From NCBI GenBank assembly GCA_015075515.1, contig JABTUE010000003.1, forward strand, positions 700,005-764,004: a stretch of DNA of 64,000 nt, read 5' to 3'. Shown piece after piece: positions 1 through 47,266 of this stretch. Every line of letters begins with the position of its first letter. The first letter of the stretch is position 1. Both the position numbers and the translations under genes were made by a program. The notes below the pieces were generated by a model. It did not search any database. It saw nothing but the letters and a program-made list of their open reading frames with translations, and had not been told where the DNA came from. The stretch comes from Planctomycetota bacterium (GTDB taxonomy: Bacteria; Planctomycetota; UBA8742; UBA2392).

Positions 1-1
1 G

Positions 2-4560: not shown

Positions 4561-4561
4561 C

Positions 4562-5869: not shown

Positions 5870-5878
5870 GAGCAGATC

Positions 5879-6724
5879 ATGGCCATCACGGCAGGCATTG
5901 ATGTCGGCAGCGGCGCGGTCAAGGTTGCGGTCATGAACATGGACGACTGCCGCGAGCAACTGGCCGCGCATTACCTTGAACGCATACGGCGACGCGACGT
6001 CATGGAAGTGGTCGAAGAATCCCTGGCCGCGGCCCTGCGCGAGGCCGGGCTGCGTCGTGACCAGCTTGATTACATTGCCACCACCGGCGACGGCGACGTG
6101 ATCCCGTGGCGAACCGGACACTTCTACGGCATGACCACGCATTCACGCGGGGCACTGTTTCTGGCGCCAGAGGCACGCGCGGCCGTGGACATCGGAGCGC
6201 TGCACACCCGCGCCATGCGCTTTGACCCTTCCGGGCGCGTGCTGCAGTACCAGATGACCAGCCAGTGCGCGTCGGGCAGCGGGCAGTTTCTGGAGAACAT
6301 CAGCCGTTATCTGGGCATCAGCATTGACGAAATCGGCCCGCTGTCGCTTTCGGCCACCAACCCCGAAAAATGCAGCAGCATCTGCGCCGTGCTGGCGGAA
6401 ACCGACGTGATCAACATGGTCAGCCGCGGCATCAGCACCCCCGACATCCTGCGCGGTATTCACAACAGCATGGCGCTGCGTGTGGCGGGTCTGCTGCGTG
6501 CGATCAAGGTTGAGGGCACGATTCTGCTGACCGGCGGCCTGGCTCGTGACACCGGTCTTGCGGCCGCGATTGCCGACAAGCTGAAAGAAGGCGGCGGCGC
6601 CAATGTATCGCTGGCCACGCACGAACTTTCCGTGCAGGCCGGCGCGATCGGTGCCGCCATCTGGGGCGCGTTCCGGCACCACAAACTGGCCAGACAACAG
6701 GAGGCCGCCCGTGGCGGCACATGA
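5879..6724 (+). CDS. bcrD: benzoyl-CoA reductase subunit D (BadF/BadG/BcrA/BcrD-type ATPase)
   Basis: 281 aa. Motifs MAITAGIDVGSGAVKVAV and DIGALHTRAM. It is a paralog of bcrA with the size of the delta subunit. Confidence 0.85.
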   Translation: MAITAGIDVGSGAVKVAVMNMDDCREQLAAHYLERIRRRDVMEVVEESLAAALREAGLRRDQLDYIATTGDGDVIPWRTGHFYGMTTHSRGALFLAPEARAAVDIGALHTRAMRFDPSGRVLQYQMTSQCASGSGQFLENISRYLGISIDEIGPLSLSATNPEKCSSICAVLAETDVINMVSRGISTPDILRGIHNSMALRVAGLLRAIKVEGTILLTGGLARDTGLAAAIADKLKEGGGANVSLATHELSVQAGAIGAAIWGAFRHHKLARQQEAARGGT

Positions 6725-8832: not shown

Positions 8833-9435
8833 TACCGACGGCACCACCTCAAACAACCTCGGGCCGGCCTCAATCACCGCGGCCACGCGCTCGGCCCAGG
8901 CCTGTCGAAACACGGCCAGCGCGCGGGGGTCACCCGCCAGCGCCGGCCGCAGGTTTTCAGAAATCACCGGCTGTTCCGGCAGCACGCCGGCACGCGTCAC
9001 CAGACACACACTCGCGCGCGTGTCAGAGCGCCACAGGGTAACGGCGCCAAAGGGCGCGGCCTCGGGTTCATACCGCAGCAGCCCCGCGCGCGCGAAGCGG
9101 CCGGCCAGTCCGCGAAACCCGTCATTGCCCGCCGCGCCGGTAATGTAGCCGACAATCCGCCCGACCGGGCCGCTGGCGAATACGTCAGGCGCCGAGTGAA
9201 CCTTGACCGACACATCGCCGCGCACCGGCAGTTGATCCCCGTACAGGCGCTTCAGGCCCTCGCGCGCCAGTTCAAATGCCGTGGCCACCGTCGGGCACAG
9301 GTGCCCGGCGTAGCGGCCGGCATCCTCCAGCGTGAACTCCATGCGGCCATCGGCCTTGAACCCCAGCAGTTCCGCCAGCGGATCACGCAGCACAATCGGC
9401 GCGCAGGCAGCGGCAATTTCTTCAAGCCTTGTCAT
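8803..9435 (-). CDS. FmdE-like domain protein (uncertain)
   Basis: About 210 aa with a GHLCPTVA motif reminiscent of the FmdE family HxCPG. AGGAGG lies 9 nt upstream of the ATG at 9435. The start overlaps the stop of the nnrS-like gene. Confidence 0.45.
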   Translation of the reverse strand: MTRLEEIAAACAPIVLRDPLAELLGFKADGRMEFTLEDAGRYAGHLCPTVATAFELAREGLKRLYGDQLPVRGDVSVKVHSAPDVFASGPVGRIVGYITGAAGNDGFRGLAGRFARAGLLRYEPEAAPFGAVTLWRSDTRASVCLVTRAGVLPEQPVISENLRPALAGDPRALAVFRQAWAERVAAVIEAGPRLFEVVPSVSAQHQPQHQ

Positions 9436-11419
9436 GGGCAATCGCCTCCTGTAGCTGCTTCATCACGTCCTCCAGCGCGTAGCCGTTGTGCGACGCCGCG
9501 CGCGCCACGCTTTCTTCGCCGCCGCAGCAGGCATCCAGCCCCAGGCGCGAAAACACCGGCACCGTGCGCGGATACGCCCGGGCCACGTCGGCCACCGACC
9601 GTCCCGGGTCAATCGCCGCAACCGGCGCGACGGGCGGGGGCGACGGTGGCGCGGCTCCTGTGGCGCGGCGCAGATCCGCCAGCAGCGCGTCCAGGTTCAC
9701 ACCCTTGAGCGCGCAGGCCTGCTCCAGACTGACCGCGCGCGCCAGAGTGTTGCGCGCTACCGGGTTCTTCAGCAGCCCGAACCCGTGCCAGGCAAACACC
9801 TCGATCGTGTGAGGCCAGCGCGCCAGAATCGCCGCCACGTTGGCCCGGGCGTTCAGTTCCGTGGCCGGGGCGATGACATCGGCAGGCCGCGCGCGGATCA
9901 GCAGCCCGCCGATGTGCGCCCCCCACAGCAGCAGCGCCAGCGCCGCCAGCGCCGAACCCGCACCCAGCACAACGAACGCGGCGGTGTGGTAATCCAGGGC
10001 GGTCTCACCCGCCAGGCGCAACGCCACCGCCAGGTTCAGCAGCCACAGCACAGCGCGCTTGCGGCCCAGCATGGCCGGGTTGATGCCGCGCAGCGTGGGC
10101 ACAACCTTGAGCGACACGGCCACGATCATCTGGGCAATGAACCCCAGTGTCAGGGTGTGGCGCACCGCGCCGTGATAGCCGTGGCCGAAATACCCCAGCA
10201 GCGAAATGTACACCGGCTCCAGCAGCCACAGCACCAGCGCGACCGCCAGCCACCCGTGCGCGGCGCGCACGAACGGAATGCTGCGGTCGCGCCCCGCGGG
10301 CGTGCGCCAGGGGCGAAAACCCGTCAGGACGCCAAGCACTGAAACCGCAAACACCAGCAGAGCCAGCCAGTACATCGTCTGAAGGGTCGCAACGCTCAGG
10401 GGTGCGGCAGCCAGACCGCGCTTGGCCGCCATGGACCAGCCAAACCCGGTAACCATGACCGCCAAGCCCAGGTTCAACGGCCAGAACCAGAACTTCATGG
10501 CGCGCTGGCCCGGATCGGCAAAACCGAACACCGGCGGCAAAAACCTTTGCATCACGCCCAGAATCAGGATCGTCGCTCCGCCCAGCAGTTGCACCATGCG
10601 CAAGGGCTCCTGCAGCGCCGCAATGCGCGGAATCAGTGTGCCAAAGCCGTCGGCTGTGGTGATGGCCGCCAGATGCACCCCCGCGGCCAGCGACCCCAGC
10701 ACGAGCCACCCCGCCGCGGCAAACACATAGCGGTCATAGGCCGCCCATCCGGCCCCCGCCACGGCGCAGGTGCGCCACAGGATCAGCGCGAACAGGGCCA
10801 GCGCCACGGTTTCCAGCCCGCTGCCGGCAAGGGCCAGCGCCAGCCACGGACCACCGAATGAAAACACCGGACCGGACATGTCCAGCGCCAGCATCTCGCC
10901 GGCCACGCGCGCGGACACACCCAGCGCCATCAGCACAAACGAAAACAGCGCCAGTTTCGGCCGCCACAACGAGGCGTGCTTGAAGCGCGGCAGGGCCTGG
11001 TAGCCGAAACCCATGATGAACATGCCCGCAAACCCGGCCACCATCGCGTGGGCGTGGGCGTTGATCAGGTTGATCGGCGGCGACACCAGGCTGCCCCCGG
11101 CCCAGGCCCGCCCCATCACATACAGACCCAGAATCACACCCGGCACCAGCGCAAAGGCCAGTCCGCCCAGAAAGAACGGGCGGTACAACGCGTCGGTCAG
11201 GCCGGGTGCGGAAGGCGCTGGCGGGGCTTTGGCGGGCGCGGCGTTCAGCTCCCGCAGCAGGCGGTCGAGTTCCACACCGTGGGCGGCCGCAAAGAACGCC
11301 AGGGTTTCATCGGGCCCGGTCGCGCCGCCGCACCCGCGCAGTCCGTACCGATCCAGCACAGGTCTCAGGTGCGGTGCCCTGGCCAGCAGGCGGGGGATGG
11401 TTTCCTCGGGGTGGATCAT
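9422..11419 (-). CDS. NnrS-family polytopic membrane protein fused to three DUF1858/ScdA_N-type soluble domains
   Basis: 665 aa. The N-terminal roughly 60 aa (IPRLLARAPHLRPVLDRYGLRGCGG...) form one soluble module. A long multi-TM core rich in conserved His follows. Two C-terminal modules complete the protein, and the last one (VADVARAYPRTVPVFSRLGLDACCGGEESVARAA) closely resembles the YtfE/ScdA N-terminus. Confidence 0.7.
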   Translation of the reverse strand: MIHPEETIPRLLARAPHLRPVLDRYGLRGCGGATGPDETLAFFAAAHGVELDRLLRELNAAPAKAPPAPSAPGLTDALYRPFFLGGLAFALVPGVILGLYVMGRAWAGGSLVSPPINLINAHAHAMVAGFAGMFIMGFGYQALPRFKHASLWRPKLALFSFVLMALGVSARVAGEMLALDMSGPVFSFGGPWLALALAGSGLETVALALFALILWRTCAVAGAGWAAYDRYVFAAAGWLVLGSLAAGVHLAAITTADGFGTLIPRIAALQEPLRMVQLLGGATILILGVMQRFLPPVFGFADPGQRAMKFWFWPLNLGLAVMVTGFGWSMAAKRGLAAAPLSVATLQTMYWLALLVFAVSVLGVLTGFRPWRTPAGRDRSIPFVRAAHGWLAVALVLWLLEPVYISLLGYFGHGYHGAVRHTLTLGFIAQMIVAVSLKVVPTLRGINPAMLGRKRAVLWLLNLAVALRLAGETALDYHTAAFVVLGAGSALAALALLLWGAHIGGLLIRARPADVIAPATELNARANVAAILARWPHTIEVFAWHGFGLLKNPVARNTLARAVSLEQACALKGVNLDALLADLRRATGAAPPSPPPVAPVAAIDPGRSVADVARAYPRTVPVFSRLGLDACCGGEESVARAASHNGYALEDVMKQLQEAIAHDKA

Positions 11420-27431: not shown

Positions 27432-29309
27432 TTACTTGTCGCCGGTAAACACTTTCTTGCGCGGCGGAACGGTGCCCTTTTTCAGAAACAGCAGGGCAAA
27501 ACTGGTGTCCGTGGCCCCGCCCCAGCCACCGTCCTTGTCCTGCAATGCAAGCAGCGGGCAGCAGCCCTCATAGTACCAGTTGTGCTCGCCCATGAACTTG
27601 ATCGCCGCCAGCATGCCCACGCGTTCCAGTCCGTACATGTAGTAGTAGTACCAGTTGCGCCAGTACACAGGGTTGCGGGTCACGCTGAACCAGTACTCAT
27701 GCCAGGCCAGGCCGCACTCAATGGCATCCTGTACCGTCTTTTCCCACTGCTGGAACAAAGCCTTTGAGGTGAACTCGGCCTTGAAGTCGGCTTCGTTCAT
27801 ACCGTCGGCGATTTCAAGCCCGACCATCAGAATGGTCACGCCGCTGGCCGACATGCTGCCGTAGGCGGTGGTGGTGTCCTGGTACTTGTCCCAGGTTGCC
27901 TTCACACTGTAGTGAAAGCCGCGGGCTTCCACGGTTTTGGTGCTGTAGGTGGACTTGCCCTTGCCGCGCTGGGCGTCTTTGGGCGGGGTAAAGCTGATCA
28001 CGCGGCGCACCTTGGGGCCATTGGCCGCCTGCATCTTCAGGGTTTCGTCCACAAACTTCTTGGTGATGCCGGGCGGAATACGCACATTGCAGCGCTGGGC
28101 CGCAGCCAGACCCAGAATCGCGTACTGGGTGCAGGAAAAGTCAAAGCGCTGGGTGGTGGCCGGCGCTACCGGCGGCTCTTTCTTGTAGTTCCAGAACGGG
28201 TTGGTGTCGTTGCGGTTGGCGACAATCCAGGCCACCAGCCGCTCCATTTCGGCCCGGTCTTCGGGGCTCAGGTCGCGCTTGAGCGTTACCGGCTTGTCTG
28301 AGCTGAGGAACGAGCGGCGCTCTTCCACGGTGATATAGCGCGCCTCCAGCGCCATCAGCGAAACGCCCACGTCGTAGATGCAATCCAGAGGCAGGTCCTT
28401 AAGCTTGCGGAAGCTTTCGACAATCCGCTCGTCATCGGCTGGCACATCGCACATCAGCAGCGCCAGCAGGCTCAGCGCCGTGCCGCCGCGGGTGTGGTTG
28501 CCGTAGGGCCACAGACCTTCGGCGCTGCGCTGCTTCCACAGGCGCTCAACGCCCAGGGCAATCGCGCGCTCAACGCGACCGTTGAGAACCTTTTCTTCCC
28601 AAGCGTCAAAATCGCGCGTCATGCGCCATTCGACATCCCAGTCGTAGTAGTTCATCGGCCCGGGCTTGTCGCCCACGGCAGGGGTGATCAGCGACCCGCG
28701 CAGAATCACCCGCGCGCCGCGCAGCCAGCCACGCGGCATGTCGAAGTACGCCAGCGTGTCGGCCTCAAACGTGGTCAGACGCGACAACTGGGCCAAGCCC
28801 GCGGCGTCGTGCGCCTTGAGGCTGTGCTTGCCATAGATCAACCAGCAGTTCAGGCCGTTGTATTCGACCTGGGGTTTGAGTTCGTAGCTGGAGTTGACCG
28901 AGAAGTTGTTGAAGGTCTGGACCTTTTCGAACTTCCATTCGCGCTGCCAGGTGGCGCCGACTTTCTGCTTGCCGGCCGGCAGGTACATGGCCAGTTGCAT
29001 CAGCGCTTCATCGAGAATCAGCGGCTCATAGCGGCGCAGCCATTCGCCAGCGGACGAGATTTCATAGCCAAAGAAACCAACCCACTGTCCGGCGGGCTCG
29101 ACCTGTTTGTCTTCGCCCTGCAGCGGCGCGCGCGGGTCGAGTTTTTTCTGGTCAGCGACCGTGAAGTGCAGGTACTGGTTGACGCCCAGTGCCCAAGCCA
29201 ACTCGGCGCGGTCGTTGCCGGCCTGCATGTCGCTGTTGGCCAGACCAATGCTTGAAGTGCAAAGTATTGCGGCGCAGACGGCTGCCGGCGCCATAGCCCA
29301 GAAACGCAT
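27432..29309 (-). CDS. exported protein: unknown N-terminal domain + alpha/alpha-toroid (prenyltransferase/squalene-cyclase repeat) domain, paralog 2
   Basis: Signal peptide MRFWAMAPAAVCAAILCTSSIGLA. C-terminal repeats (GLWPYGNHTRGGTALSLLALL, LALQDKDGGWGG, TDTSFALLFLKKGT). GGGAGGAG RBS. Confidence 0.65.
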   Translation of the reverse strand: MRFWAMAPAAVCAAILCTSSIGLANSDMQAGNDRAELAWALGVNQYLHFTVADQKKLDPRAPLQGEDKQVEPAGQWVGFFGYEISSAGEWLRRYEPLILDEALMQLAMYLPAGKQKVGATWQREWKFEKVQTFNNFSVNSSYELKPQVEYNGLNCWLIYGKHSLKAHDAAGLAQLSRLTTFEADTLAYFDMPRGWLRGARVILRGSLITPAVGDKPGPMNYYDWDVEWRMTRDFDAWEEKVLNGRVERAIALGVERLWKQRSAEGLWPYGNHTRGGTALSLLALLMCDVPADDERIVESFRKLKDLPLDCIYDVGVSLMALEARYITVEERRSFLSSDKPVTLKRDLSPEDRAEMERLVAWIVANRNDTNPFWNYKKEPPVAPATTQRFDFSCTQYAILGLAAAQRCNVRIPPGITKKFVDETLKMQAANGPKVRRVISFTPPKDAQRGKGKSTYSTKTVEARGFHYSVKATWDKYQDTTTAYGSMSASGVTILMVGLEIADGMNEADFKAEFTSKALFQQWEKTVQDAIECGLAWHEYWFSVTRNPVYWRNWYYYYMYGLERVGMLAAIKFMGEHNWYYEGCCPLLALQDKDGGWGGATDTSFALLFLKKGTVPPRKKVFTGDK

Positions 29310-29348: not shown

Positions 29349-31178
29349 CTAGCCCTCCCCCGTGACGACCCGCGACCTCAGTGGAACCGTACCCTTCTTC
29401 AGGAACAGCAGCGCAAACGACGTCTCGACAACCCCATCTCCCCACTTGCCGTTGTCGTGTTGCAATGCAAGCAACGGGCACGACCCTTGGTGGTACCAAG
29501 GATGTTCGCCAATGTACCGCATCCCGGCAAACATTGCGACTCTTTCCATACTATAAAGATAGTAGAAATACTCATGAAATTGGCTGCGCCAGGGGTTCCT
29601 CGTAACACTGTAAAAGTACTCCAGCCAGGTCAGGCCTCCTTCTAAACTGTTCTGCATCAAGAGGTTCCACTTGCCATACTCGGCCTTGGACCCGAATTCG
29701 GCATCCAGTTCCGGGCCTTGCAGGGCCATGCCCCATTCCGTGCACAGCATCTGGGTGATCAGGCCGGCGCAGGTCATGGACCCGTAGGGGGTACCCGTCC
29801 AGGCTTTTTCATCCCATGTGCCCCAGGTCATGTACTCCCAGCCGCGGCAATCAGTCGGCTTGGCGGCGCGGGCAAAGGCCGGCACGCCGCGGGCGTTGAC
29901 TTTGGCCGCCACAACACGGCGGTGCTTGGGCCCGTTCTGCTGCTGGTACTTCAGCAGGTAGCTGCTGACGGATTTGGGAATGTTGGGCGGGCGCTTCAGG
30001 CCGCAACGCACAGCGGCGGCCAGACCCATCATCACATAGTGTGTGGTTGAAAAGCACCATTTGCCACCGCCGGCGCCGCGTTCTTTGGTGTAAGTCCACA
30101 GCGGGTTGTCCGTGTTGCGGTTGTCCATCAGCCAGTCCACCAGCCGCTGCATTTCAGCGCGGTCTTCCGGCGTCAGGTTGCGCTTGGGAGGCGGCAGGTC
30201 GTCCGCACCGGCGATGTAATGCTTGCGCTCTTCGGCATCAATGTACTTGGACTCAATGGCCAGAATGGAGATCGCCGCGGCATAGGTGGTTTCCACCGGC
30301 AGGTCTTTCATCGCCGCAAAGGCCTGCACAATGCGCGGGTCAGTCGGCGAAACGTCCGACGCCAGCAACGCCGAAAGCGCCAGCGCCGTGCCGCCGCGGC
30401 GGTGCTGGTAAAACGGCCACAGGCCGTCCTTCTGAAGGGCAAACAGGGCGTCAACGCCCCTGGCAATCGCCCCGGCAATCTGGCGGTTCAGCATGTCGGT
30501 TTCGCGGCTGTCGTGGCGCGCGGCCAGCCGCCACTGGCCCGTCACGCGGTGCGACACCATCTGGCCCTCGGCGTTGCGGTGTTCGGCATCGAGCATCACG
30601 CGCAGTCCGCGCGCGCAGCGGGCCGCCGGGTCAAACCAACTGGTGGTGGTCAGGGTAAAGGCCGTCCAGCCAGCCTTGCCGGCGCCTTCGGCCACGGTGG
30701 ATTGCTTGCGCAACGTCCAGGTGCCGGTGATGACAGCACAACGGATCTTTTCGTGGTCTTCCAGACGTGCAAACTGCATGTCGGCGGCCAGCGCCAAAGG
30801 CGGCAGATCCACCAGGTGGGTAAAGTCGTGGTCGCGCTTCCAGGCGTGGCCGATCTTGTGCCGCCCGCCGGGCAGACTGCCGGCGCAGGCGGCCAGAAGC
30901 TCGTGCAGGCCAAGCGGCTGGACCGGCCCGGCGCGAAACCCGAACGAGTCAACTTCGTAGCCAAAGAAGTGATAGCGGCCAAGAGGCGCCGGCGCGTCGG
31001 GTGTGTCCAGAACCGGCGTTTCCAGCGGGGCGTAATGCAAATACACCGGGTGCGGCACATCCCAGGACAGGTCAACGCGGTCGGCCCCGGCCTGGCGCTG
31101 GCCGGCCACGCCGGGGGCAACGGCCAGCATCAGCACCGTGCCCGCAGCAACCGCAACTGCCCTGCGGATGCAGCCCAT
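29349..31178 (-). CDS. exported alpha/alpha-toroid repeat protein, paralog 1
   Basis: Collinear with paralog 2 (GLWPFYQHRRGGTALALSALL, LALQHDNGKWGD, ETSFALLFLKKGT), with a signal peptide. Confidence 0.65.
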   Translation of the reverse strand: MGCIRRAVAVAAGTVLMLAVAPGVAGQRQAGADRVDLSWDVPHPVYLHYAPLETPVLDTPDAPAPLGRYHFFGYEVDSFGFRAGPVQPLGLHELLAACAGSLPGGRHKIGHAWKRDHDFTHLVDLPPLALAADMQFARLEDHEKIRCAVITGTWTLRKQSTVAEGAGKAGWTAFTLTTTSWFDPAARCARGLRVMLDAEHRNAEGQMVSHRVTGQWRLAARHDSRETDMLNRQIAGAIARGVDALFALQKDGLWPFYQHRRGGTALALSALLASDVSPTDPRIVQAFAAMKDLPVETTYAAAISILAIESKYIDAEERKHYIAGADDLPPPKRNLTPEDRAEMQRLVDWLMDNRNTDNPLWTYTKERGAGGGKWCFSTTHYVMMGLAAAVRCGLKRPPNIPKSVSSYLLKYQQQNGPKHRRVVAAKVNARGVPAFARAAKPTDCRGWEYMTWGTWDEKAWTGTPYGSMTCAGLITQMLCTEWGMALQGPELDAEFGSKAEYGKWNLLMQNSLEGGLTWLEYFYSVTRNPWRSQFHEYFYYLYSMERVAMFAGMRYIGEHPWYHQGSCPLLALQHDNGKWGDGVVETSFALLFLKKGTVPLRSRVVTGEG

Positions 31179-31213: not shown

Positions 31214-31972
31214 TTACTTCAGGTCACGCAGCCTGTCCGCGGCCGTCCGGCGCAGATCGGCCAGCGTCTTCTGTCGCGACTGAAGTGTTTCCTTCAGCTT
31301 CTTGCTTTCACTGACCAATGCCGGCCCGTCATCTTCGCCCCTGACCTGGGCTTCGGCGCCGATCAGCTTGTCACAACGTTCAATGTCGGTCTTGATACGG
31401 GCCTCCTCGGCGGCGGCCCAGCGGTCAAACTCGGCCAGGCGCTCGCGGTCGCCCTTTTTCTGGGCGGCGGTCACGTCCGGGTCGGGGTCGGGCTTGCGCA
31501 CCTGGGGCACTTCCGGCAGCGACGACAGCGCCTCGGTCCAGGCTTCCAGAGCCAGACGGGCTTCGTTGATGCGGGGCGCCCAGGCTCCCTGGGCCGAAAG
31601 CTGGTTGACAGCATGCCCGCCGGCGGAGTTGCGCAGTTCCACCTGTTTGTCCATCAGCGCGCGGCGGGCGGAATCGCGGTTCTTCTGGGCTGTTTCGGCG
31701 GCCTTGCGCAGGTTCACGCCCTCGGTCTTGATCGCCTGGGCACGGGCGGGGTCTTTCTTGAGCGCGTCTTCGTAGGCGCGGTTGTTTTCGTTGACTTTGG
31801 TGTCGGCATCACTCAGGGCCTTTTCGGCCTCGGTCACCTTGACCGCCAGTTCGCTGATTTCCTTGCGCAACTGGCGGAAGTTGTTCTGGGCGTGCGCGAC
31901 CGGCGCCGCGGCCAGAGCGGCCAGAATCACGACCCATGCCAGGGTCCTACATGCCCGGTTTGCTGATGCCAT
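31214..31972 (-). CDS. exported coiled-coil protein
   Basis: Signal peptide (LAWVVILAALAAAPVAHA) followed by charged heptad-like sequence. The ATG lies inside the last codons of the response-regulator gene (26-nt overlap). Confidence 0.55.
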   Translation of the reverse strand: MASANRACRTLAWVVILAALAAAPVAHAQNNFRQLRKEISELAVKVTEAEKALSDADTKVNENNRAYEDALKKDPARAQAIKTEGVNLRKAAETAQKNRDSARRALMDKQVELRNSAGGHAVNQLSAQGAWAPRINEARLALEAWTEALSSLPEVPQVRKPDPDPDVTAAQKKGDRERLAEFDRWAAAEEARIKTDIERCDKLIGAEAQVRGEDDGPALVSESKKLKETLQSRQKTLADLRRTAADRLRDLK

Positions 31973-33278: not shown

Positions 33279-34591
33279 GGCTCGGTCTCTTTCAGAAAAG
33301 TCGCCCGGAATATGGTACCCGCCGGCCCGGTCTGGACCAACACAAGGTCGCCGCCCAGGTCACGCAGCAGCCGTCGGGCGATGGCAAGCCCGAGCCCGGT
33401 GCCGTCAGCCTTGCCTGTGACAAAGGGCTGAAACAGCCGGGCGCGGATTTCGTCGGGGATGCCCGGGCCGTTGTCGGCGACCTCAACGCTGACCTCGGGC
33501 CCGCGCAGGGCGGCGCGCAGCGTGACCTGGCCGGCGGCGACTTCGCGCAAGGCCTCGGCGGCGTTGTTGACCACGTTGCTCAGGGCTTCGCGCAACGCGG
33601 TGCTGTCTACTTCAAGTTCCGCCGCGGGCAGGTTGTCCGCGCGGATGGTCACGGTGTCGCCGGCCAGGCTGCGGGCGGTGTCCAGCACCGGACGCAGCAC
33701 CTGGTCCAGCGTGATGCGTTCAATGCTGCCCTTGCTGCCGCGCGAGAACTGCAGAAAGTCGCGCACCACGCGGTCCAGCGCGCCGATTTCGGAGATCAGC
33801 TTGTCGGCAATCTGTTTCTGCAGCGGGTCATTCAGGCCGCGGGCCAGCAGTTCAACGTACCCGCGCAGGGCAGCCAGCGGGTTCTTGATCTGGTGGGCCA
33901 TGCCGGCACTGAATTGCGCCAGTTCGGCCAGGCGCGTCTGTTTCTGCAGATCGCGCTGCACACGGCCCCAGGCCCGCGCCGCCACCAGCGCCGCCAGCAG
34001 CGTGACGGCAAAAACCACACCCACGGTCAGGGCCATGGTATTGCGCACGGCGACCAGACTGGCCGAATAGTCGGCCTCGATTTCGACAGCCACGGCAAAG
34101 GCGGCAACAGTGCCGTCGGAATTCAGCACAGGGGCAAACCCGTTGCGGTACAGGTTGCCCTCGGTGTCGCGGTAGGCAACGGTAGCCAGGGGCCCGCGCG
34201 AAAAACAGGCCTCAAGCTCGTTGGCGTCGTTGGCAAAGCCGTAGTCGCGGCTGCCAAAGGGGCTGTCTTCGGTGTCCACCAGCAGCGAGCCATCGCGGCG
34301 CAGAATGGCGATACGGCGCACGCCGCTGGCCTGTTTGAGAGCCGCCAGACGGCCACGGTACAGGCGTGCCACCGGGTCGTCACCCGAGGGCAGTTGTTCC
34401 AGTGCCCCGGCGCTCAGACCGGCGGCGGCGGCGGCGGCATAGCTGCGCAGCCGCCGTTCAAGCTGGTCCTCAAGCCCGCGTTCGATGTAACCGTAGGCGA
34501 TCAGCGCGCCGCCCAGCAGGGCACCGGCCACGGTCAGGGCGAAAACCAGGCCCAGCATCAGTGTCTGGGTGTTGCCGGGCCGCCGGGTCAT
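33275..34591 (-). CDS. sensor histidine kinase with a periplasmic sensing domain
   Basis: Two TM segments flank a domain of about 150 aa. H-box FSAGMAHQIKNPL. N and G boxes (NNAAEAL, DNGPGIP, GTGLGL). 4-nt overlap with the regulator gene. Confidence 0.9.
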   Translation of the reverse strand: MTRRPGNTQTLMLGLVFALTVAGALLGGALIAYGYIERGLEDQLERRLRSYAAAAAAGLSAGALEQLPSGDDPVARLYRGRLAALKQASGVRRIAILRRDGSLLVDTEDSPFGSRDYGFANDANELEACFSRGPLATVAYRDTEGNLYRNGFAPVLNSDGTVAAFAVAVEIEADYSASLVAVRNTMALTVGVVFAVTLLAALVAARAWGRVQRDLQKQTRLAELAQFSAGMAHQIKNPLAALRGYVELLARGLNDPLQKQIADKLISEIGALDRVVRDFLQFSRGSKGSIERITLDQVLRPVLDTARSLAGDTVTIRADNLPAAELEVDSTALREALSNVVNNAAEALREVAAGQVTLRAALRGPEVSVEVADNGPGIPDEIRARLFQPFVTGKADGTGLGLAIARRLLRDLGGDLVLVQTGPAGTIFRATFLKETEP

Positions 34592-35784
34592 CAGAAGTTC
34601 AGCTCCACAAACAGGGTGGCGGTGTGCACCGCATAGCCGGCGGCGTTAACGTCGCTGATGCGGCGCGAATAGCTGTAGCGCCCGCCCAGATACAGAAACG
34701 AATACACGTTGTAGGCAACTTCGGTCCACAGCATGGCGTAACGCTCGAACGTGGTCTTTACAGTGCTGTCCGGATCCAGCGAGTCCACGTCCACGCGGTC
34801 GTCGTATTCGCGGTGCCAGGCATCCAGGCCGAACGTGATGCGCAACGGCTCGTACAGATTCAGGTCCAGCGCGCCGCGCAGCCCGTACTGCCAGTACCGG
34901 TTAAATCCCGCGGCGCTGTCATCCTGGCGTAGCGAATAGACGCGGGCCTCGGCTTCGATCAGGCCGATGTCCAGGCGCACATCGGCGCCGTAGTTGAACT
35001 TCAGCAATTGCAGGTCGTCTTCCTGGCGCAGCAGCGTGCCGTCGTCCTGCAGGTCAAACTGGTCGCGGAACCAGGCATAGCTGAACTCGATGTACGGCCG
35101 GATCTCAAGCACATCCCAGGCGTTGATGTACACGCTGAAGTCACTGCCGATTTCCCAGTTGTCGTAACTGGGAACAGCGTTCTCTTCGCTGAAGTCGGTG
35201 GTCTTGCCGGTAAAGCCAAGCTCAAAGATTAAAAACGAAAGCGAATAACCCACGTGCACGCGGGCGATGCCGCCGCTGGCGCGCAGGTCGTCCTGGCGGG
35301 TCAGCGGGCCGGTCAGCTCGTAGGTCTGCAATTGCTGGTACAGCACGTCAGCCGAAATGCCGAAACCCCAGCCACCGCCGCCGTAGGGCACCTTGACAAA
35401 TCCACCCAGCTTGAGATCCCACATGTCGGCGTCGGGCTCGCCAAAATACAGGCGCCCGGCCACCGTGCCGCGGGCGCCCAGCGCCACCAGGCCGAAGTTG
35501 TGGCCAACCCAGGCCTGGGCTACAGCGTCGCCGAACAGGCCGTTATCGAGGTTGCGGTCTTCCTTGAAGATGTTGTTGTCCCAGCCAACGGAAGCGCGGG
35601 TGCGCAGGCCAAGCCCGGTGCGGTCGCGGCCCAGTGCCAGCGGCAGGTACTGGCCATCGGCCACGCCTCCGACCTCAAGATCGGCAAAGGGCTCCACGGG
35701 CTTTTTTTCGTCCGACGCACTGGCGGACTGGGCCGCAAGCGGCAGGGCCAGCACAAGGCAAAACGGCATCAGCCAACGAACCAT
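34591..35784 (-). CDS. outer-membrane beta-barrel protein
   Basis: Signal peptide (MVRWLMPFCLVLALPLAAQSASA). Alternating aromatic/hydrophilic strands and a C-terminal ...LFVELNF. GGAG lies 8 nt before the ATG at 35784. Confidence 0.65.
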   Translation of the reverse strand: MVRWLMPFCLVLALPLAAQSASASDEKKPVEPFADLEVGGVADGQYLPLALGRDRTGLGLRTRASVGWDNNIFKEDRNLDNGLFGDAVAQAWVGHNFGLVALGARGTVAGRLYFGEPDADMWDLKLGGFVKVPYGGGGWGFGISADVLYQQLQTYELTGPLTRQDDLRASGGIARVHVGYSLSFLIFELGFTGKTTDFSEENAVPSYDNWEIGSDFSVYINAWDVLEIRPYIEFSYAWFRDQFDLQDDGTLLRQEDDLQLLKFNYGADVRLDIGLIEAEARVYSLRQDDSAAGFNRYWQYGLRGALDLNLYEPLRITFGLDAWHREYDDRVDVDSLDPDSTVKTTFERYAMLWTEVAYNVYSFLYLGGRYSYSRRISDVNAAGYAVHTATLFVELNF

Positions 35785-36005
35785 GGCACGACTCCGGCAG
35801 GGCAAAGCAGGGGTGCCTGAGTTTAGGCCGGGCCAGGCGCCGTCACAATGCCGCCGATGGACCGGGGAGGTTGGCCGGGGGTTCCTCCCCGCGCCAACCT
35901 CCCGTTTGGACTTCCGGACAAAGTTGGCAGCCGGTCAGTGGGGCCATACCGCCGGCTGCCTTTCCCTTGTCATCTGAGGACCCGATCCCCAGACAACTGG
36001 GTAAG

Positions 36006-36021: not shown

Positions 36022-36149
36022 ATCCGTGCCTGGGGCACGCGCCGGCCTGCAAGTAGCTTGAACAAGGGGTTTTGCGGACACTTCCGGGTTTGGTCACTTT
36101 TGCCGGCCTCGGGCAGATTCGCCAGTTCTCAAGCGTTAGTGCCAGTGGC

Positions 36150-36169
36150 GGTGCCAGACTTTCGGCACC
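36150..36169. promoter_or_regulatory. perfect inverted repeat GGTGCC-N8-GGCACC (candidate activator/operator site)
   Basis: It lies about 130 nt upstream of the candidate sigma54 promoter and about 75 nt upstream of the XPB start. An extra GTGCCAG copy sits at 36139-36145. Confidence 0.3.
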
Positions 36170-36242
36170 CGGCCACGGACGCGTATCGCGCCGGGCCTGC
36201 CGCATGTAGAATGTTTCGTTCGATTTTCGGCCGGAGCAACGC

Positions 36243-37979
36243 GTGAATCAGCCCCGTGGACCAGCCATCGTACAGGCCGACCTTTCGATCCTGCTGGAAG
36301 TGGATCACCCTGACTACGAAACCGCCCGCGACGCGTTGGCCGGTTTTGCCGAATTGGTCAAGAGTCCCGAGCACATCCACACCTACCGCATCACACCGTT
36401 GAGTTTGTGGAACGCCGCCGCCAGCGGCATTTCCGCCCAGGACGTGCTGGGTGCCCTCAGGCGCTATTCGCGCTATGAGGTGCCCGAACTCGTCACCAGC
36501 GAAGTGGTCGAATACATCGGCCGCTACGGGCGTCTGGTTCTGGAGGAACGCAACGGCCGCCACATTCTGACCAGCCGCGACACCCAGTTGCTGGCGATGG
36601 TCGTCGGGCAGAAGTCCTGTGCGCGCTACTTTGACGGCATGCTGGACCAGCATACCGCGTTGCTGGCCCCGGGGGCACGCGGATGGCTCAAGCACGCGCT
36701 GGTCAAGATCGGCTTTCCGGTCGAAGACATCGCGGGCTACACCCCCGGCACGCCGCTGGAGGTCAAGCTGCGCGAGCGCACGCTGGAGGGCCGGCCGTTT
36801 GCCCTGCGCCGGTACCAGAAAATGGCCGCCGACACCTTTCATGCCGGCGGCGGCCCGCGCGGCGGCAGCGGCGTGATCGTTCTGCCATGCGGCGCTGGCA
36901 AGACCATCGTGGGCATGGCGGCCATGTCGCTGGTGCGTGCCCACACCCTGATCCTTACCGCCAACGTGGTGGCCGTTCGCCAGTGGATCCGCGAACTGGT
37001 GGACAAAACCGGCCTCAGTCCCGACCAGGTGGCCGAATACACCGGCGACAGCAAGGCGATTGCGCCCGTCACCGTGGCCACGTACCAGATCGTCACCTAC
37101 CGCAAGCGCAAAAGCGAGGAGTTCCCCCACTTTGAGCTGTTCCGGCGCGGCGACTGGGGGCTGATCATCTACGACGAAGTACACCTTCTGCCCGCGCCGG
37201 TGTTTCGCGCCACGGCTGAAATCCAGTCGCGCCGGCGCCTTGGCCTTACCGCCACGCTGGTGCGCGAGGACGGGCTTGAAGAAGACGTGTTCAGCCTGGT
37301 GGGCCCCAAGCGTTACGACGTGCCCTGGCGCGAACTGGAAAAGCAGGGCTGGATCGCCACGGCCGACTGCACCGAAATTCGCGTGGATCTGCCCCCCGGC
37401 CAGCGTCTGCCCTACGCCATGGCCGACCAGCGCGAGCAGTACCGCATTTCGGCCGAAAACCCGGTCAAAATGGACGTGCTGGAGGCCCTGTTGAAGCTGC
37501 ACGCCGGCGACCGTGTGCTGGTGATCGCCCAGTATCTGGACCAGTTGCACGAGATCGAACGGCGTTTCGGCTTTCCGCTGATCGAAGGCAAGACTCCCAC
37601 CAAACGGCGCGAAGAACTGTACGCGAAATTCCGCACCGGCCAGCTCAAGGCGCTGATTGTCAGCAAGGTCGGCAACTTCGCCATTGACCTGCCCGACGCC
37701 AACGTGATGGTCCAGCTTTCGGGCACGTTCGGGTCGCGCCAGGAAGAAGCCCAGCGCCTGGGCCGTATCCTGCGCCCCAAGGGCGACGGCCAGCTTGCGC
37801 ACTTCTACACGATCGTGACACGCGAAACCCGCGACCAGGACTTCGGCGCCAACCGCCAGTTGTTTCTGGTCGAACAGGGCTATCGTTACCGCATGGTGGA
37901 AGCCGCCGACATCCTGCAACAGCGGTTTGAGCCCGCGCGCCCCGTCACGGCGCCGGTCGGTCAGGGGGCGGCGCCATGA
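36243..37979 (+). CDS. XPB/Rad25 (ERCC3)-type SF2 DNA helicase
   Basis: GTG start after GGAG. Walker A (LPCGAGKTIVG), DEVH box (IIYDEVHLLPA), motif III with the XPB RED signature (GLTATLVREDG) and motif VI (QRLGRILR). Confidence 0.85.
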   Translation: MNQPRGPAIVQADLSILLEVDHPDYETARDALAGFAELVKSPEHIHTYRITPLSLWNAAASGISAQDVLGALRRYSRYEVPELVTSEVVEYIGRYGRLVLEERNGRHILTSRDTQLLAMVVGQKSCARYFDGMLDQHTALLAPGARGWLKHALVKIGFPVEDIAGYTPGTPLEVKLRERTLEGRPFALRRYQKMAADTFHAGGGPRGGSGVIVLPCGAGKTIVGMAAMSLVRAHTLILTANVVAVRQWIRELVDKTGLSPDQVAEYTGDSKAIAPVTVATYQIVTYRKRKSEEFPHFELFRRGDWGLIIYDEVHLLPAPVFRATAEIQSRRRLGLTATLVREDGLEEDVFSLVGPKRYDVPWRELEKQGWIATADCTEIRVDLPPGQRLPYAMADQREQYRISAENPVKMDVLEALLKLHAGDRVLVIAQYLDQLHEIERRFGFPLIEGKTPTKRREELYAKFRTGQLKALIVSKVGNFAIDLPDANVMVQLSGTFGSRQEEAQRLGRILRPKGDGQLAHFYTIVTRETRDQDFGANRQLFLVEQGYRYRMVEAADILQQRFEPARPVTAPVGQGAAP

Positions 37980-38173
37980 AGTTTCACCTGCATGTGGGAG
38001 TAATCGAGGCCGAAAGTGAGCAGGCCCTGAACGAGGCGCTGACAATCGCGCGCTGTGAGGCCCGCGTACTGGCGCGCCTTGCCCCCAACGTGGCGGTCCT
38101 GGAACGCGGCGACACGCAACTGGTGATCGCGGCGCTGCGGGAACTGGGCCTTCACCCCAAGGTGATGCAATGA
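37976..38173 (+). CDS. 65-aa protein of unknown function, coupled on both sides
   Basis: There are ATGA overlaps with the XPB stop (37976) and with the next start (38170). The sequence resembles the C-terminal module of the next protein (EAESEQAL... vs CDSDEQAM...). Confidence 0.55.
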   Translation: MKFHLHVGVIEAESEQALNEALTIARCEARVLARLAPNVAVLERGDTQLVIAALRELGLHPKVMQ

Positions 38174-39897
38174 AGGGCGCGGCCACGGATCAAGGCAGGG
38201 GCTACCGGGCCGGCGAGCTTGATTTTTTGAGCGTCGCCGAGGCCGTGATTGAACGTCAGCCGCGCGTGTTGAAAAATGGGCTGCCCAATCTGGCGTTCTT
38301 CCGGGCGGCCAACGCCAACCTGGCCCAGCCCGATGACGAAGCCCAAGGGCACGGCTTTGCGCAGGTGGAGTTCTGGCTGACACTGGCGCGCGAACTCGGG
38401 CTGACTGCAACCGACGGTGACCGACTGGCGATTACCGATGCCGCCGACGAGTTTTTTGCCCAACCGCTTGCTGCACGGCGCGATCGCCTGCGCGAGGCCT
38501 TTCTGGGCGCCCGGTCGCTGAATGACTTTGCCCTGGTGGGCGATCTGGAATTGCCCGGTCTGCGCAAGTCCGGCACCGTGGACACCACCACCGACGCGCC
38601 GGGCCCCGAGGCGCTGGCCGCGGCGCGACGGCGCGTGCTGGAGTTTGTGCTGGCCTGCGCGGGCGAAACCCGGGTCGCGCGCCTGTGTCAGCAGGTCCAG
38701 CGCGAAGCCCCCAGCTTTGCCATTGACCACAGCGACGACGGGTCGTGGCGACGCGTGTTTTACCGCGGCATCCGCGAACGCGGCGGCCGCGAAGAAATCG
38801 AACGCGACGGCGGCTGGGATCGCGTCGAGGGCGCGTACATCCGGTGGCTGGTTTCGCTGCCGTTTGCGCGGCTCGGCTGGGTGGACTACGACCCGGCCCG
38901 CGATGCCTTTGAACCACTGACCACGGAAGACGGCGACCCGATCTTTGAGATCGTGGTACAGCCCAACTTCGAAGTGCTGGTGCTGGGCGACCGGCTGGAT
39001 GCCGGGACGCTGTGGCGGCTGGCGCGCTTTGCACGCCCGGCCATGCAGGGCCGCGTCCGCCGCTATATGCTGGAAAAGAAGTCTTTTACCGACGCGCTGG
39101 GCCGCGGCCTGAGCGCAGGCGCGATACTGGAGCTTTTGTCTTCACTGTCGCGCCGGCCCTTGCCCCAGAACGTGCGCTTTTCACTCGAGGAATGGAGCGC
39201 CAGTTCCGAACGCATGAAAATCTGGCCCGACGCGCTGCTGGTCGAGGCCGAAGGCGTAGACGACCTTGCGGCGCTGCTGCCCGAGGCCGCACGCCGCGCT
39301 CTGGGCCTGGCGCGCATCGGCGGCGGGCACATGGCCGCCGTCGCGCCCGATGCCGCGCTGTTGCGCCAGCATGTGCCGCCGCGCCGCGCGATACTGGACT
39401 ATTCGCGGCGGTTGCCGCCGGCGATCACACCCCAGGGTGACCTGCGGCTGCACGCCCCGGCTGAGTCATTGCACCTGCGCGCGCGCCAGACACTGGAACT
39501 GGTGGCGCGACGCCAGGGTGCCGACCACTGGCTGCTGGATCCGGCACTGACCCGCGCCGCCGCCACAGCACTGGGGCCCGACGAATTGCGACGGCGCGTC
39601 GAAGAAGCACTGACCCGGCCGCTGGAACAGGCCCACGCGCTGGCCTTGCGTGCCTGGAGCGGCGAGTTCGCGCCGGCCTTTGCCGGCAGCGCCGAGGTGT
39701 TTCTGTGCGACAGCGACGAACAGGCAATGCTGCTTGAACAAGTTCCCGAGTTCGCGGCGTGGCTGGATCGCAAGCTGGGCCGCGGCGCCTATCTGCTGCG
39801 CCACGGAGGCGCCGCAGCGGTGCGCAAACTTCTGGCAGGCTGCGGCGTAACACTGCGTGACCACACCCGAACAGACTCGCAGGGCAGGCGTCCATGA
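38170..39897 (+). CDS. XPB-associated 575-aa protein carrying a copy of the XPB N-terminal module
   Basis: The central segment (IVVQPNFEVLVLG...RRYMLEKKSFTDALGRGLSAGAILELLSSLSRRPLPQNV) aligns with the XPB N-terminus (IVQADLSILLEV...HTYRITPLSLWNAAASGISAQDVLGALRRYSRYEVPELV). Confidence 0.65.
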   Translation: MKGAATDQGRGYRAGELDFLSVAEAVIERQPRVLKNGLPNLAFFRAANANLAQPDDEAQGHGFAQVEFWLTLARELGLTATDGDRLAITDAADEFFAQPLAARRDRLREAFLGARSLNDFALVGDLELPGLRKSGTVDTTTDAPGPEALAAARRRVLEFVLACAGETRVARLCQQVQREAPSFAIDHSDDGSWRRVFYRGIRERGGREEIERDGGWDRVEGAYIRWLVSLPFARLGWVDYDPARDAFEPLTTEDGDPIFEIVVQPNFEVLVLGDRLDAGTLWRLARFARPAMQGRVRRYMLEKKSFTDALGRGLSAGAILELLSSLSRRPLPQNVRFSLEEWSASSERMKIWPDALLVEAEGVDDLAALLPEAARRALGLARIGGGHMAAVAPDAALLRQHVPPRRAILDYSRRLPPAITPQGDLRLHAPAESLHLRARQTLELVARRQGADHWLLDPALTRAAATALGPDELRRRVEEALTRPLEQAHALALRAWSGEFAPAFAGSAEVFLCDSDEQAMLLEQVPEFAAWLDRKLGRGAYLLRHGGAAAVRKLLAGCGVTLRDHTRTDSQGRRP

Positions 39898-41342
39898 GCA
39901 GAACGCAAACAACCGCGAGTAACCAACGGGAAATCTCGGCCCGTGTGCGGGTGTGGGCGTTCATGGCCTGGTTGCTGTTTCTTGCATCCTGCACGCTGCC
40001 CGGCGAACAACCATTGCCCGAAGGCGTCACCGACACGCGCGCCAATCTTGTGGATCACATCAAGGACAATCCGACGGACCTTGACGCCCACGCCGACCTG
40101 CTGCGCATGCAGATCAAATCCGGGGACCGCGCCGGCGCCGAGACCACAGTGGCCCACGCGCTGAAACACAACCCGCGCGATTTTCGCGCCCACCTGCTGG
40201 AGGCCCAGTACCACCGCTGGCAGCTTGACCTGATCACCACCGAAAAGGCCCTGCTCAAGGCCCGGGCAACAGCGCCCGAGCGTCTGGAACCCTGTGTGGC
40301 GCTGGCCGGCCTGTACAACCAGACCTATCTGGACACCGAAGAACTGGCGCTGCGCCGCGTGGCGCTGGAACTCTGCCCGCCCGAACTGCGGCCCGAGTTC
40401 ACGCTGGATCTGGCCTATTGCCTTTGGGGCCAGGGCAACGCCGCCGCCGCGACACCTCTGGCAGCGGCTCTGGCAGGCCAGACCGACACGCCGGCCGGTC
40501 TGCGCGCCCGTAACCGGCTGCTGCAGGCCGAAATGGCGCTGGCCGGCGGAACCGGTACCGAGGCCGCGGGGCACATCGCCGCAGCCTTTGCACTTGTACC
40601 CGAAGACGGCGGCGTGCTGCAGTTTGCCGCGCGCGCCGCCACGGTGCTGGACGACCCGGCCCCCCTTGCGCCGCTATTTGAGCAAACGCTGGCCGGACAT
40701 GACCGCGCCGAGCTGCGCTGGACGGCCCTGTTCGGCCATTGGATGCTGGCTCTGCGCAAATCTGTGGCAGCCGGCTCTGACCCGCTGGGCGACGAGCCCG
40801 ACCTGTGGCGCAAACGCCTGGAAGCCATGGAACCCGGCCACCCCGATGTTTCGGGGCGGTACTACCAGCTTCTGCGCCTGGATTCCGCGCGCGCACAGCA
40901 GGCCGAAACGCTGGGCAAACAGCTTGAGGAATACGGACTTGGCGTGCCGCCGGTGCCTTCAACCCACGCGGCGCTGCTGAGACTGTGGCGTGTGGAAGAC
41001 GCCCTGCGGGTGGGAGCCTCAAATCCGGCGGTGGCCCTGGCAACCGAGCTGCGCCGGGCCGAGGGCGAACTGGAGGGTTCGCGCATGCTGCTGGTCATGG
41101 CCCTGTTCAAGGCCCGTCAGGACGACCGGTGCCTGGCCGAAGTGGAGGCCTGGCTGGCTGAAAGCAAGGAGCCCGACGATATCCTGCTGTCGCTGCGCTG
41201 GTGGCTGCTGCTGCGCCAGGGAAAATCGGTGGAAGTTCTGGCCGACATCGAAAAGCGTGGCGGAGACAACAACAGTCGGCTGTGGCTGGAGGCAGTGGCC
41301 CGCTTTCACACCTATCGCGCCGCCGCGCGCAAGGGCGAATAG
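39894..41342 (+). CDS. TPR-like helical-repeat lipoprotein
   Basis: The ATGA overlaps the previous stop. Signal with lipobox (WLLFLASC). Helical repeats are rich in A/L/R. Confidence 0.6.
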   Translation: MSRTQTTASNQREISARVRVWAFMAWLLFLASCTLPGEQPLPEGVTDTRANLVDHIKDNPTDLDAHADLLRMQIKSGDRAGAETTVAHALKHNPRDFRAHLLEAQYHRWQLDLITTEKALLKARATAPERLEPCVALAGLYNQTYLDTEELALRRVALELCPPELRPEFTLDLAYCLWGQGNAAAATPLAAALAGQTDTPAGLRARNRLLQAEMALAGGTGTEAAGHIAAAFALVPEDGGVLQFAARAATVLDDPAPLAPLFEQTLAGHDRAELRWTALFGHWMLALRKSVAAGSDPLGDEPDLWRKRLEAMEPGHPDVSGRYYQLLRLDSARAQQAETLGKQLEEYGLGVPPVPSTHAALLRLWRVEDALRVGASNPAVALATELRRAEGELEGSRMLLVMALFKARQDDRCLAEVEAWLAESKEPDDILLSLRWWLLLRQGKSVEVLADIEKRGGDNNSRLWLEAVARFHTYRAAARKGE

Positions 41343-46300: not shown

Positions 46301-47266
46301 TCAGGCCAGACTTTCCACCGTGGCTACTAAACCGCGGTAGATGTCTTCCACGCCGCCACGGGCGTCAAACTCTCGCAACAGGCCACGTTCGCGGTAGTAG
46401 GGCACCAGCGGGCCGGTGCTTGCATCGTAGACGGTAAGCCGCTGGCGAACCTTGTCGGCCGCGTCGTCTTCGCGCTGGTAGGTCTGGCCGCCACAGGCGT
46501 CGCACACGCCCTCAACCCGTGTGGGCGCGTAGACGGCGTGGCTTATGGCGCCGCAGGCCCGACAGGTGCGTCGGCCGCTGATGCGCTCCACAATCACTTC
46601 ACGCGGGGCGTCAAAATACAGAACCGCTGAAACGCGCTCGCCCCGCACAGCCAGCGCCTGGGCCAGCCGGTCGGCCTGGGGCACCGTGCGCGGGAAACCA
46701 TCCAGGATATAACCACCACGGCAGTCCTGGGCGCCGATGCGGTCAATCACCAGCTCAACCACCAGGTCGTCGGGCACAAGCTGGCCGGCGTTCATGAACT
46801 CCTTGGCCTTCAGCCCCAGCGGCGTGTCGCGCTTGAGGTGGTCGCGGAACAAATCGCCGGTGCTGATATGCGGCAGGCCAAGGTGCTGGGCCAGTTTGGC
46901 GGCCTGGGTGCCCTTGCCCACGCCGGGCGGACCCATAAACACCAGCACCAGGCGCCGGTCAGGCCGCGCGGGCTCGACCATCGGCAGCGGCTGGGGCGCG
47001 GGCATGGGCCGGACCGCGGCCTCTACAAACGATGGCTCGGCGCGCAGACTGGTGCGGGGCGCCTTGCGCGCGGATACGGGCGCGGCTTTTGGCGCGGGCA
47101 GTTTGCGGCGCACAGCCTTGCGCGGGGCGACCTTCTTGGCGGGTTTACGTGCGGTCTTTTTCGCCGGCTTTTTCGCCGGTTTCTTGGCAGCCTTCTTGGC
47201 CGGTTTCTTTGCGGTCTTGCGGACGGGCTTTTTCACCGACTTCTTTGCGGGATTCTTGCGGGCCAT
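46301..47266 (-). CDS. adk: adenylate kinase (zinc-lid type) with an in-frame Lys/Ala/Pro-rich N-terminal extension of about 104 aa
   Basis: Core: [15 protein letters not shown], lid CRACG...CDACGG. The extension is [45 protein letters not shown]... with no stop before the core. GAGAGGA RBS lies before 47266. Confidence 0.85.

Follow-up and report, generated by a model that had tools for sequence, protein, structure and literature searches.

In the eukaryotic complex TFIIH, XPB is held and switched on by two further subunits, p52 and p8, which are said in the openly searchable literature to be missing from bacteria. Within this XPB-p52-p8 arm (Ssl2-Tfb2-Tfb5), the "clutch" of p52 (MD2) forms a pseudo-symmetric pair with the N-terminal domain (NTD) of XPB (PMC13024598), p8 and the p52 C-terminal domain (CTD) "adopt the same fold" and dimerize, and the ATPase of eukaryotic XPB is both stimulated and held in check by p52/p8, as shown for the fungal enzyme (PMC7708078). 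In archaea, the XPB gene lies beside that of a dedicated, co-transcribed modulating partner, Bax1 (PMC7672443, PMC13024598). The PF13625 NTD is common to bacterial and eukaryotic XPB, whereas most archaeal XPBs are without it (PMC3353954), and the function of the bacterial enzyme was termed elusive in a 2026 review (PMC13024598). Here, these systems are compared with a locus at positions 36243-41342 of a 64,000-nucleotide (nt) stretch of DNA (hereafter the window) from a Planctomycetota bacterium (GenBank assembly GCA_015075515.1, contig JABTUE010000003.1, positions 700,005 to 764,004), in which a gene for an XPB-type helicase is followed by those of a 65-amino acid (aa) protein (the small protein), a 575-aa protein (the partner), and a 482-aa lipoprotein with a tetratricopeptide repeat (TPR)-like signal.

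Two internal resemblances at this locus, one between a segment of the partner and the N terminus of the helicase and the other between the C terminus of the partner and the entire small protein, had been noted in an initial annotation made from the DNA letters and open reading frames (ORFs). Together they look like the signature of the XPB-p52-p8 sub-module of TFIIH, which that annotation did not name. From the combined sequence, structure, and gene-order comparisons below, we consider it probable that the trio of XPB, partner, and small protein is a minimal bacterial XPB-p52-p8-like DNA-repair translocase, the counterpart of the XPB arm of TFIIH in both architecture and mechanism. To find such a sub-module beyond the eukaryotes, and free of the remaining parts of TFIIH, would be new as far as the known literature permits; no description of bacterial p52 or p8 homologues was found, with subscription journals mostly outside reach and prior notice therefore possible.

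XPB, a p52-like partner, and the small protein

The four plus-strand ORFs of the initial annotation were all recovered: XPB at 36243-37979 (578 aa, GTG start, GGAG 7 nt upstream), the small protein at 37976-38173 (65 aa), the partner at 38170-39897 (575 aa), and the TPR-like lipoprotein at 39894-41342 (482 aa). Each of the three junctions carries the ATGA start/stop overlap that had been claimed for it. The translation of the first ORF contains GAGKT, DEVH, TATLVREDG, and QRLGRILR, comprising motifs I, II, and VI of helicase superfamily 2 (SF2) and the RED motif, and scores 849 bits against a cut-off of 610 with the NCBIfam model NF045503 (DNA repair helicase XPB). Pfam places PF13625 at its N terminus (aa 9-127, 36267-36623, plus strand, E 2.7e-32), with further matches to ERCC3_RAD25_C, Helicase_C_3, and ResIII. 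On its sequence the 578-aa protein is thus assigned as an XPB/Rad25-type SF2 DNA helicase-translocase, as the initial annotation had called it. The XPB of Mycobacterium tuberculosis (Rv0861c) shares both the NCBIfam equivalog and the layout of a PF13625 NTD with two RecA lobes and the RED motif (PMC3353954); it has been studied as an isolated enzyme, whereas partner genes were identified at the present locus.

The partner carries a PF13625 domain at aa 262-383 (38953-39318, plus strand; E 5.5e-13, 49.5 bits, cut-off 34.2), the counterpart of both the p52 MD2 clutch and the XPB NTD. Pairwise BLASTP of the XPB N terminus against this segment was not significant (E 16), and the resemblance holds at the profile level: both segments enter PF13625 at model position 2, so that the register in which the initial annotation had aligned them by eye is correct. 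Pfam gave nothing else at E ≤ 10, either for the whole partner or for its N- and C-terminal pieces, and no match at all for the small protein.

Structure comparison extended the match outside this domain. An AlphaFold2 (AF2) model of the partner, built from a 24-sequence alignment (predicted local distance difference test score (pLDDT) 80.5, predicted template modeling score 0.61), was searched against the PDB with Foldseek, and the best 13 matches were all p52/Tfb2 chains of TFIIH, with E values of 4.7e-7 to 8.4e-5, probabilities of 0.98-1.00, and alignments of ∼360-485 columns. The top match is 6trs_B, from the crystal structure of p52-p8 (E 4.7e-7, 429 columns), and the remainder include 9pd3_D, 8ebs_D, 7nvv_2, and 9a88_C. 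XPB/Ssl2 chains rank after p52 and are matched through the XPB NTD over 105-289 columns, as compared with ∼400-430 for p52. Because the p52 chains outrank the XPB chains with longer alignments, the likeness to p52 reaches beyond PF13625. The N-terminal half of the partner model matches the winged-helix-rich N-terminal half of p52. The initial annotation had proposed looking for a nuclease fold in residues 1-250, and this candidate was rejected, since the region gave the p52-like winged-helix match instead, no nuclease was present among the significant Foldseek matches, and no nuclease family was found in the partner by Pfam or NCBIfam scans.

The resemblance of the partner's C terminus to the small protein was likewise borne out when profiles were compared with each other. 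Using a diverse partner alignment, hhalign aligned aa 3-62 of the small protein with aa 504-563 of the partner (39679-39858, plus strand) at a probability of 89.6% and E 1.9e-6 over 60 columns; in controls, E was 0.39 with the small-protein alignment reversed and no lower than 0.058 in 30 column shuffles. Profiles restricted to the clade of the window gave a marginal match (E 8.9e-4 to 1.1e-3, 36 columns). Of 209 representatives of the partner family, 50 were detected at domain E < 0.01 (best 2.6e-8), two of them at two positions, by a hidden Markov model (HMM) of 26 small proteins, which showed no significant match to the window's own partner. The small-protein homologues are 65-81 aa long. 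For the small protein, AF2 predicted a β-α-β-β-α(-β) topology (pLDDT 88.8), and DSSP assigned the elements of the partner's C-terminal domain in the same order in its own AF2 model (strand 509-512, helix 516-529, strands 532-537 and 540-543, helix 547-557). We refer to this domain as p8-like, as the counterpart of the p52 CTD.

The assignment of the small protein itself to a p8-like role is transitive: it follows from homology of the small protein to the partner's C-terminal domain together with the p52 likeness of the partner, and it is the weakest link of the XPB-p52-p8 reading. One point of contact with eukaryotic p8 comes from a relative (the partner of locus L037), in which the Pfam Tfb5 family (PF06331) matches aa 441-490 at E 1.1e-3 (19.4 bits, cut-off 23.5); the same domain is matched by the small-protein HMM at E 5.9e-7.

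The partner family is large. Among 1.84 billion clusters at 50% identity, 7,351 representatives matched at E ≤ 1e-3 and 3,814 at E ≤ 1e-10, the lower-scoring matches probably including XPBs through PF13625. Rv0862c, the neighbor of Rv0861c, is presumably a further member of this PF13625 partner family. Most members are 750-920 aa long, with ∼170 additional N-terminal residues, and 4 of 21 diverse homologues have a WYL domain fused at the C terminus, a domain absent from the window partner in Pfam. Long forms of 700-930 aa (P0059-P0063, P0193, and P0256; L042, 8231-10993) contain two PF13625 stretches, many with a terminal WYL domain, and in some of them the small-protein HMM matches two separate p8-like domains, for example at aa 556-605 and 718-771 of P0193. 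The unit of clutch and p8-like domain may have been duplicated in the lineages with long partners.

Gene linkage and extent of the module

In the clade of the window, 26 loci share the order XPB, small protein, partner, TPR-like lipoprotein. The flanks of these loci are identical as well, comprising genes for a 404-aa protein, a histidine kinase, and a sigma54-type regulator on the upstream side and yraN, rplS, trmD, rplQ, and rpoA on the downstream side, and remain so in loci whose partners are 48-75% identical to that of the window. Since the whole neighborhood is identical, synteny within the clade is uninformative on the four genes specifically, and the more telling comparison is with other lineages. 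In L005 and L042-L044, a small protein of 77-78 aa is encoded first, then a partner of 920-931 aa that ends in a WYL domain, and then XPB. In L048, it is XPB, small protein (76 aa, HMM E 1e-17), partner (783 aa), and an acetyltransferase. In L045-L047, a MobA-like gene precedes those of the small protein (71 aa) and the partner (702 aa), and XPB is not adjacent. XPB, small protein, and partner therefore occur together in three unrelated lineages with differing gene orders, and the small protein lies directly upstream of the partner in a fourth, so that the linkage has survived rearrangement.

The small-protein gene is directly 5′ of the partner gene in all four of these divergent lineages, and the start and stop codons of the pair overlap in each except L048, where they are 4 nt apart. 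This constant position is no more than suggestive of the heterodimer predicted between the small protein and the partner CTD. The MobA-like protein of L045 (897-3840), L046, and L047 is a 208-aa NTP-transferase-domain protein, and the small-protein and partner genes follow it with start-stop overlaps. A further set of loci (L027-L041, from other Planctomycetota, Latescibacterota, and Brocadiaceae) encodes XPB and the partner without a free small-protein gene.

Several of these loci adjoin repair genes. In seven loci of other Planctomycetota, including a Brocadiaceae metagenome-assembled genome (MAG), a uvrA-like gene lies directly 5′ of XPB and the partner, with thiE on the 3′ side (L030, L031, L032, L035, L039, L040, and L041; ∼1-6500 in each); these uvrA-like ORFs are possibly cut at the locus edge, and the term covers canonical uvrA and paralogue alike. 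Both junctions of the uvrA-like-XPB-partner run overlap by 4 nt in L030. Ada and AlkA-like genes are located 3′ of XPB in L042, and recO adjoins the partner gene in L050.

The fourth gene of the locus does not travel with the other three outside the clade. Its product was described in the initial annotation as a TPR lipoprotein, of which the lipoprotein part is well founded: a lipobox, LASC, is present at aa 30-33, and L-A-[GSA]-C is kept in 23 of 23 distinct clade homologues. The TPR part is based on weak signals such as TPR_19, whose match at E 8e-5 falls short of the Pfam cut-off. No homologue was found near XPB and partner in the loci of other lineages (L005, L027-L048). Within the clade, NTGA or TGATG overlaps predominate at all three junctions among 23 distinct loci, and the partner-TPR junction is open in 5 of the 23, with gaps of 2, 6, 18, and 93 nt. 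On account of both its absence from other lineages and this open junction, the lipoprotein is probably a clade-specific co-transcribed passenger outside the conserved module, and the puzzle of why an exported protein should be coupled to a cytoplasmic helicase consequently disappears. The unit of four genes envisaged initially thus gives way to one of three, and the conserved unit is XPB and the partner, usually with the small protein.

The TFIIH comparison and alternative readings

The likeness to TFIIH extends from the PF13625 domain of XPB to the domain order of the partner, which runs from a winged-helix N-terminal half through an XPB-NTD-like clutch to a C-terminal domain (PMC7708078, PMC13024598), and to the fold that this C-terminal domain shares with a separate protein of ∼70 aa (PMC7708078). 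The bacterial system also differs from TFIIH in several respects. Genes for p62, p44, p34, XPD, and the kinase module are not encoded near the bacterial locus, and the sequence similarity to Tfb2 and Tfb5 does not reach the Pfam thresholds. Between its clutch and C-terminal domain, the window partner is longer by ∼120 residues (aa 384-503); many relatives are extended by the ∼170 residues at the N terminus, by another PF13625 or p8-like unit, or by a WYL domain; and some lineages have no free small-subunit gene. The terms p52-like and p8-like are used here, rather than membership of the Pfam families, because the structural and architectural features of p52 were found, and for p8 only its size, topology, and relation to the partner's C-terminal domain, and sequence matches at Pfam level were not. 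The archaeal arrangement resembles the locus in that XPB is encoded next to a dedicated, co-transcribed partner, but Bax1 is a nuclease related to XPG, with HD2 and the thumb motif as its binding sites, whereas the window partner has no nuclease fold and matches p52.

By analogy with TFIIH, the PF13625 clutch of the partner would pair with the structurally similar NTD of XPB, and the partner's C-terminal p8-like domain and the small protein would form a pseudo-symmetric heterodimer. Acting together, clutch and heterodimer would support XPB's pair of RecA lobes and control the DNA-dependent ATPase/translocase activity of the helicase, with the N-terminal winged-helix domains of the partner probably contacting DNA or another factor. 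Such a complex would most likely open or remodel DNA during damage repair. The comparisons themselves show homology of the individual parts, the two domain correspondences, and linkage of the genes in several lineages; we infer the physical complex and the regulation of the ATPase from TFIIH, and the repair role from the gene neighborhoods (uvrA-like, ada/alkA-like, and recO).

A number of observations weigh against this reading. TM-scores between the partner and p52 are low (0.15-0.34), so that the match is one of domain by domain and not of global superposition, as would be expected of a flexible four-domain protein. Pfam Tfb2 (PF03849) and Tfb2_C do not match the window partner even at E ≤ 10, and profile HMMs of the partner and small protein gave chance matches only against PDB sequences. 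The sequence links to Tfb2 and Tfb5 were found in relatives only, all below the Pfam cut-offs: in addition to the Tfb5 match in L037, PF03849 matches P0059 and P0061 at E ∼1e-3 (18-19 bits, cut-off 34.5, spanning just 29 residues), and a faint precomputed Tfb2 match is on record for P0231. PF06331 matches none of the 26 small-protein homologues at E ≤ 10. Foldseek with the small-protein model returned generic α/β sandwiches (best E 0.038) and no p8 among its top 50 matches. When hhalign was run with the small protein on a p8 alignment of narrow range (12 vertebrates and yeast), E was 0.18-0.48. Nor were the small protein and the p8-like domains of the partners significantly similar to human or yeast p8/Tfb5 by hmmsearch or hhalign, the reference sequences being exact PDB matches. 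Many lineages with XPB and the partner have no free small-protein gene nearby. Finally, the repair role is read from gene neighborhood only, and no LexA-type box is evident upstream of XPB in the clade alignment.

The main functional rival to repair is a role linked to transcription, in which the partner would be a DNA-damage- or ligand-sensing transcription regulator that recruits XPB for promoter opening or for the remodeling of transcription complexes, with transcription as the primary function. The winged-helix-like N-terminal half of the partner, the IclR-type regulators among its weak Foldseek matches, and the WYL fusions in 4 of 21 diverse homologues are all consistent with this, and eukaryotic XPB-p52-p8 acts in promoter opening as well (PMC13024598). 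The window partner itself has no WYL domain, and the neighbors in other lineages are repair genes rather than those of a regulon. We also know of no evidence that a bacterial RNA polymerase needs a translocase in promoter opening, and we regard this alternative as unlikely. A little less likely still is an origin of the partner as a lineage-specific duplicate of the XPB NTD set within unrelated domains, with the small protein as a generic α/β dimerization domain and the p52/p8 likeness either convergent or limited to PF13625. The sub-threshold Tfb2 and Tfb5 links, the unspecific fold search with the small protein, and the low TM-scores would all be accounted for in this way. Convergence is harder to reconcile with p52 chains that outrank XPB chains over ∼400-430 columns as against 105-289, thus beyond PF13625, with a Tfb5 match that falls exactly on the domain detected by the small-protein HMM, or with the coincidence of domain order, small-protein size, and the internal repeat of small protein and partner CTD with p52/p8 (PMC7708078).

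The initial annotation had also raised a defense or DNA-uptake related system. In the corresponding alternative considered here, an XPB-like helicase would be the basis of an anti-phage or mobile-element system of four genes, to which the TPR lipoprotein could contribute something linked to the envelope, such as DNA uptake or translocation. The PADLOC models for PbeA match the helicase core (E 8.4e-21, partial), WYL domains, as found in partner homologues, are common in defense regulators, and most loci of the clade have the stop codon of the partner overlapped by the TPR gene. PADLOC matches (PbeA, HmaA) are nevertheless partial and confined to the helicase core, with none on the small protein, partner, or TPR-like protein; the TPR gene is missing from the module loci of other lineages, and its junction is open in several clade members. 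The locus does not lie in a variable island, as had been suggested for examination, but in core genome that is conserved, with a two-component system on one side, the ribosomal-protein/rpoA cluster on the other, and identical flanks at partner identities of 48-75%. The GC content of the window is 62-68%, with no island-type compositional signature at the locus, and the homologues of the window proteins are from uncultured Planctomycetota. Given its position in the core genome next to the ribosomal-protein cluster, the locus is not a defense island, and a defense function appears highly improbable. Of the options in the initial annotation, a role in DNA repair or translocation is the best supported, through the TFIIH-like parts and the repair-gene neighbors; its identification of XPB and of the two related modules in the partner also stands, and the four-gene unit, the nuclease fold, and the defense system were not supported. 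Collectively, these data favor the XPB-p52-p8-like repair translocase.

Surrounding sequence and wider meaning

Upstream of XPB, a promoter-like extended -10 element (TGTAGAAT, 36205..36212, plus strand) is conserved as TGnTAGAnT in an alignment of 23 clade upstream regions. It is a promoter candidate only, because a generic sigma-70 scan gave nothing at this position; generic promoter and terminator scans were at chance level. A LexA or Cheo-type SOS box was considered for the same region and dropped, as the conserved elements are the -10-like box and GTGCC/GGCAC palindromes. The latter form an inverted repeat, GTGCC-N8-GGCAC, at 36151-36168, which is kept across clade loci (TGCCAGATTTCCGGCA in most), and a second conserved element, GCCAG...GC, lies ∼25 nt upstream of it. 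Both are within the intergenic region 36121-36168, between the minus-strand gene ending at 35805 and XPB. The divergent operon opposite XPB encodes the 404-aa protein, which has no assigned function, the histidine kinase, and the sigma54-type response regulator, so that the repeat and the GCCAG...GC element may be regulatory sites of that operon.

Four minus-strand ORFs on this side of the locus, at 27432-29309 (625 aa), 29349-31178 (609 aa), 31214-31972 (252 aa), and 34591-35805 (404 aa), have coding-like GC content at third codon positions and match nothing in Pfam. Those of 252 and 404 aa keep their position in related MAGs, with a gene of ∼600 aa upstream of both in each. The adenylate kinase ORF at 46301-47266 (minus strand) is 321 aa long with its ADK domain beginning at about residue 110, and related loci encode 191-217 aa; the start of this longest ORF is probably over-extended. 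The 665-aa protein encoded at 9422-11419 (minus strand) has an NnrS membrane domain and, at its C terminus, DUF1858 and ScdA_N domains, of nitrosative-stress or iron-sulfur repair type; its neighbors are a radical SAM protein of the B12-binding kind and a molybdopterin oxidoreductase. No Rfam family reached its gathering score across the window (1-64000), despite the large cluster of ribosomal-protein, rpoA, and EF-G genes, in which ribosomal-protein leader RNAs might be expected.

It is possible, and we put this forward tentatively, that bacteria carry a widespread and ancient three-subunit "proto-TFIIH" (XPB, p52-like, and p8-like) from which the XPB arm of eukaryotic TFIIH descends, rather than from archaeal XPB. 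A bacterial rather than archaeal source is suggested because most archaeal XPBs have no PF13625 NTD and use Bax1. On this proto-TFIIH view, bacterial XPB, studied alone so far, would have been assayed without its obligatory regulators; published assays of the isolated mycobacterial enzyme may understate or misrepresent its activity. The p52-like and p8-like neighbors would give a testable model in which XPB is regulated by a clutch subunit and a small dimerization subunit. The three bacterial proteins would also offer a minimal setting in which to study the gating of XPB by p52 and p8, a question that bears on xeroderma pigmentosum and trichothiodystrophy, and the origin of the XPB arm of TFIIH would be reopened as a question.

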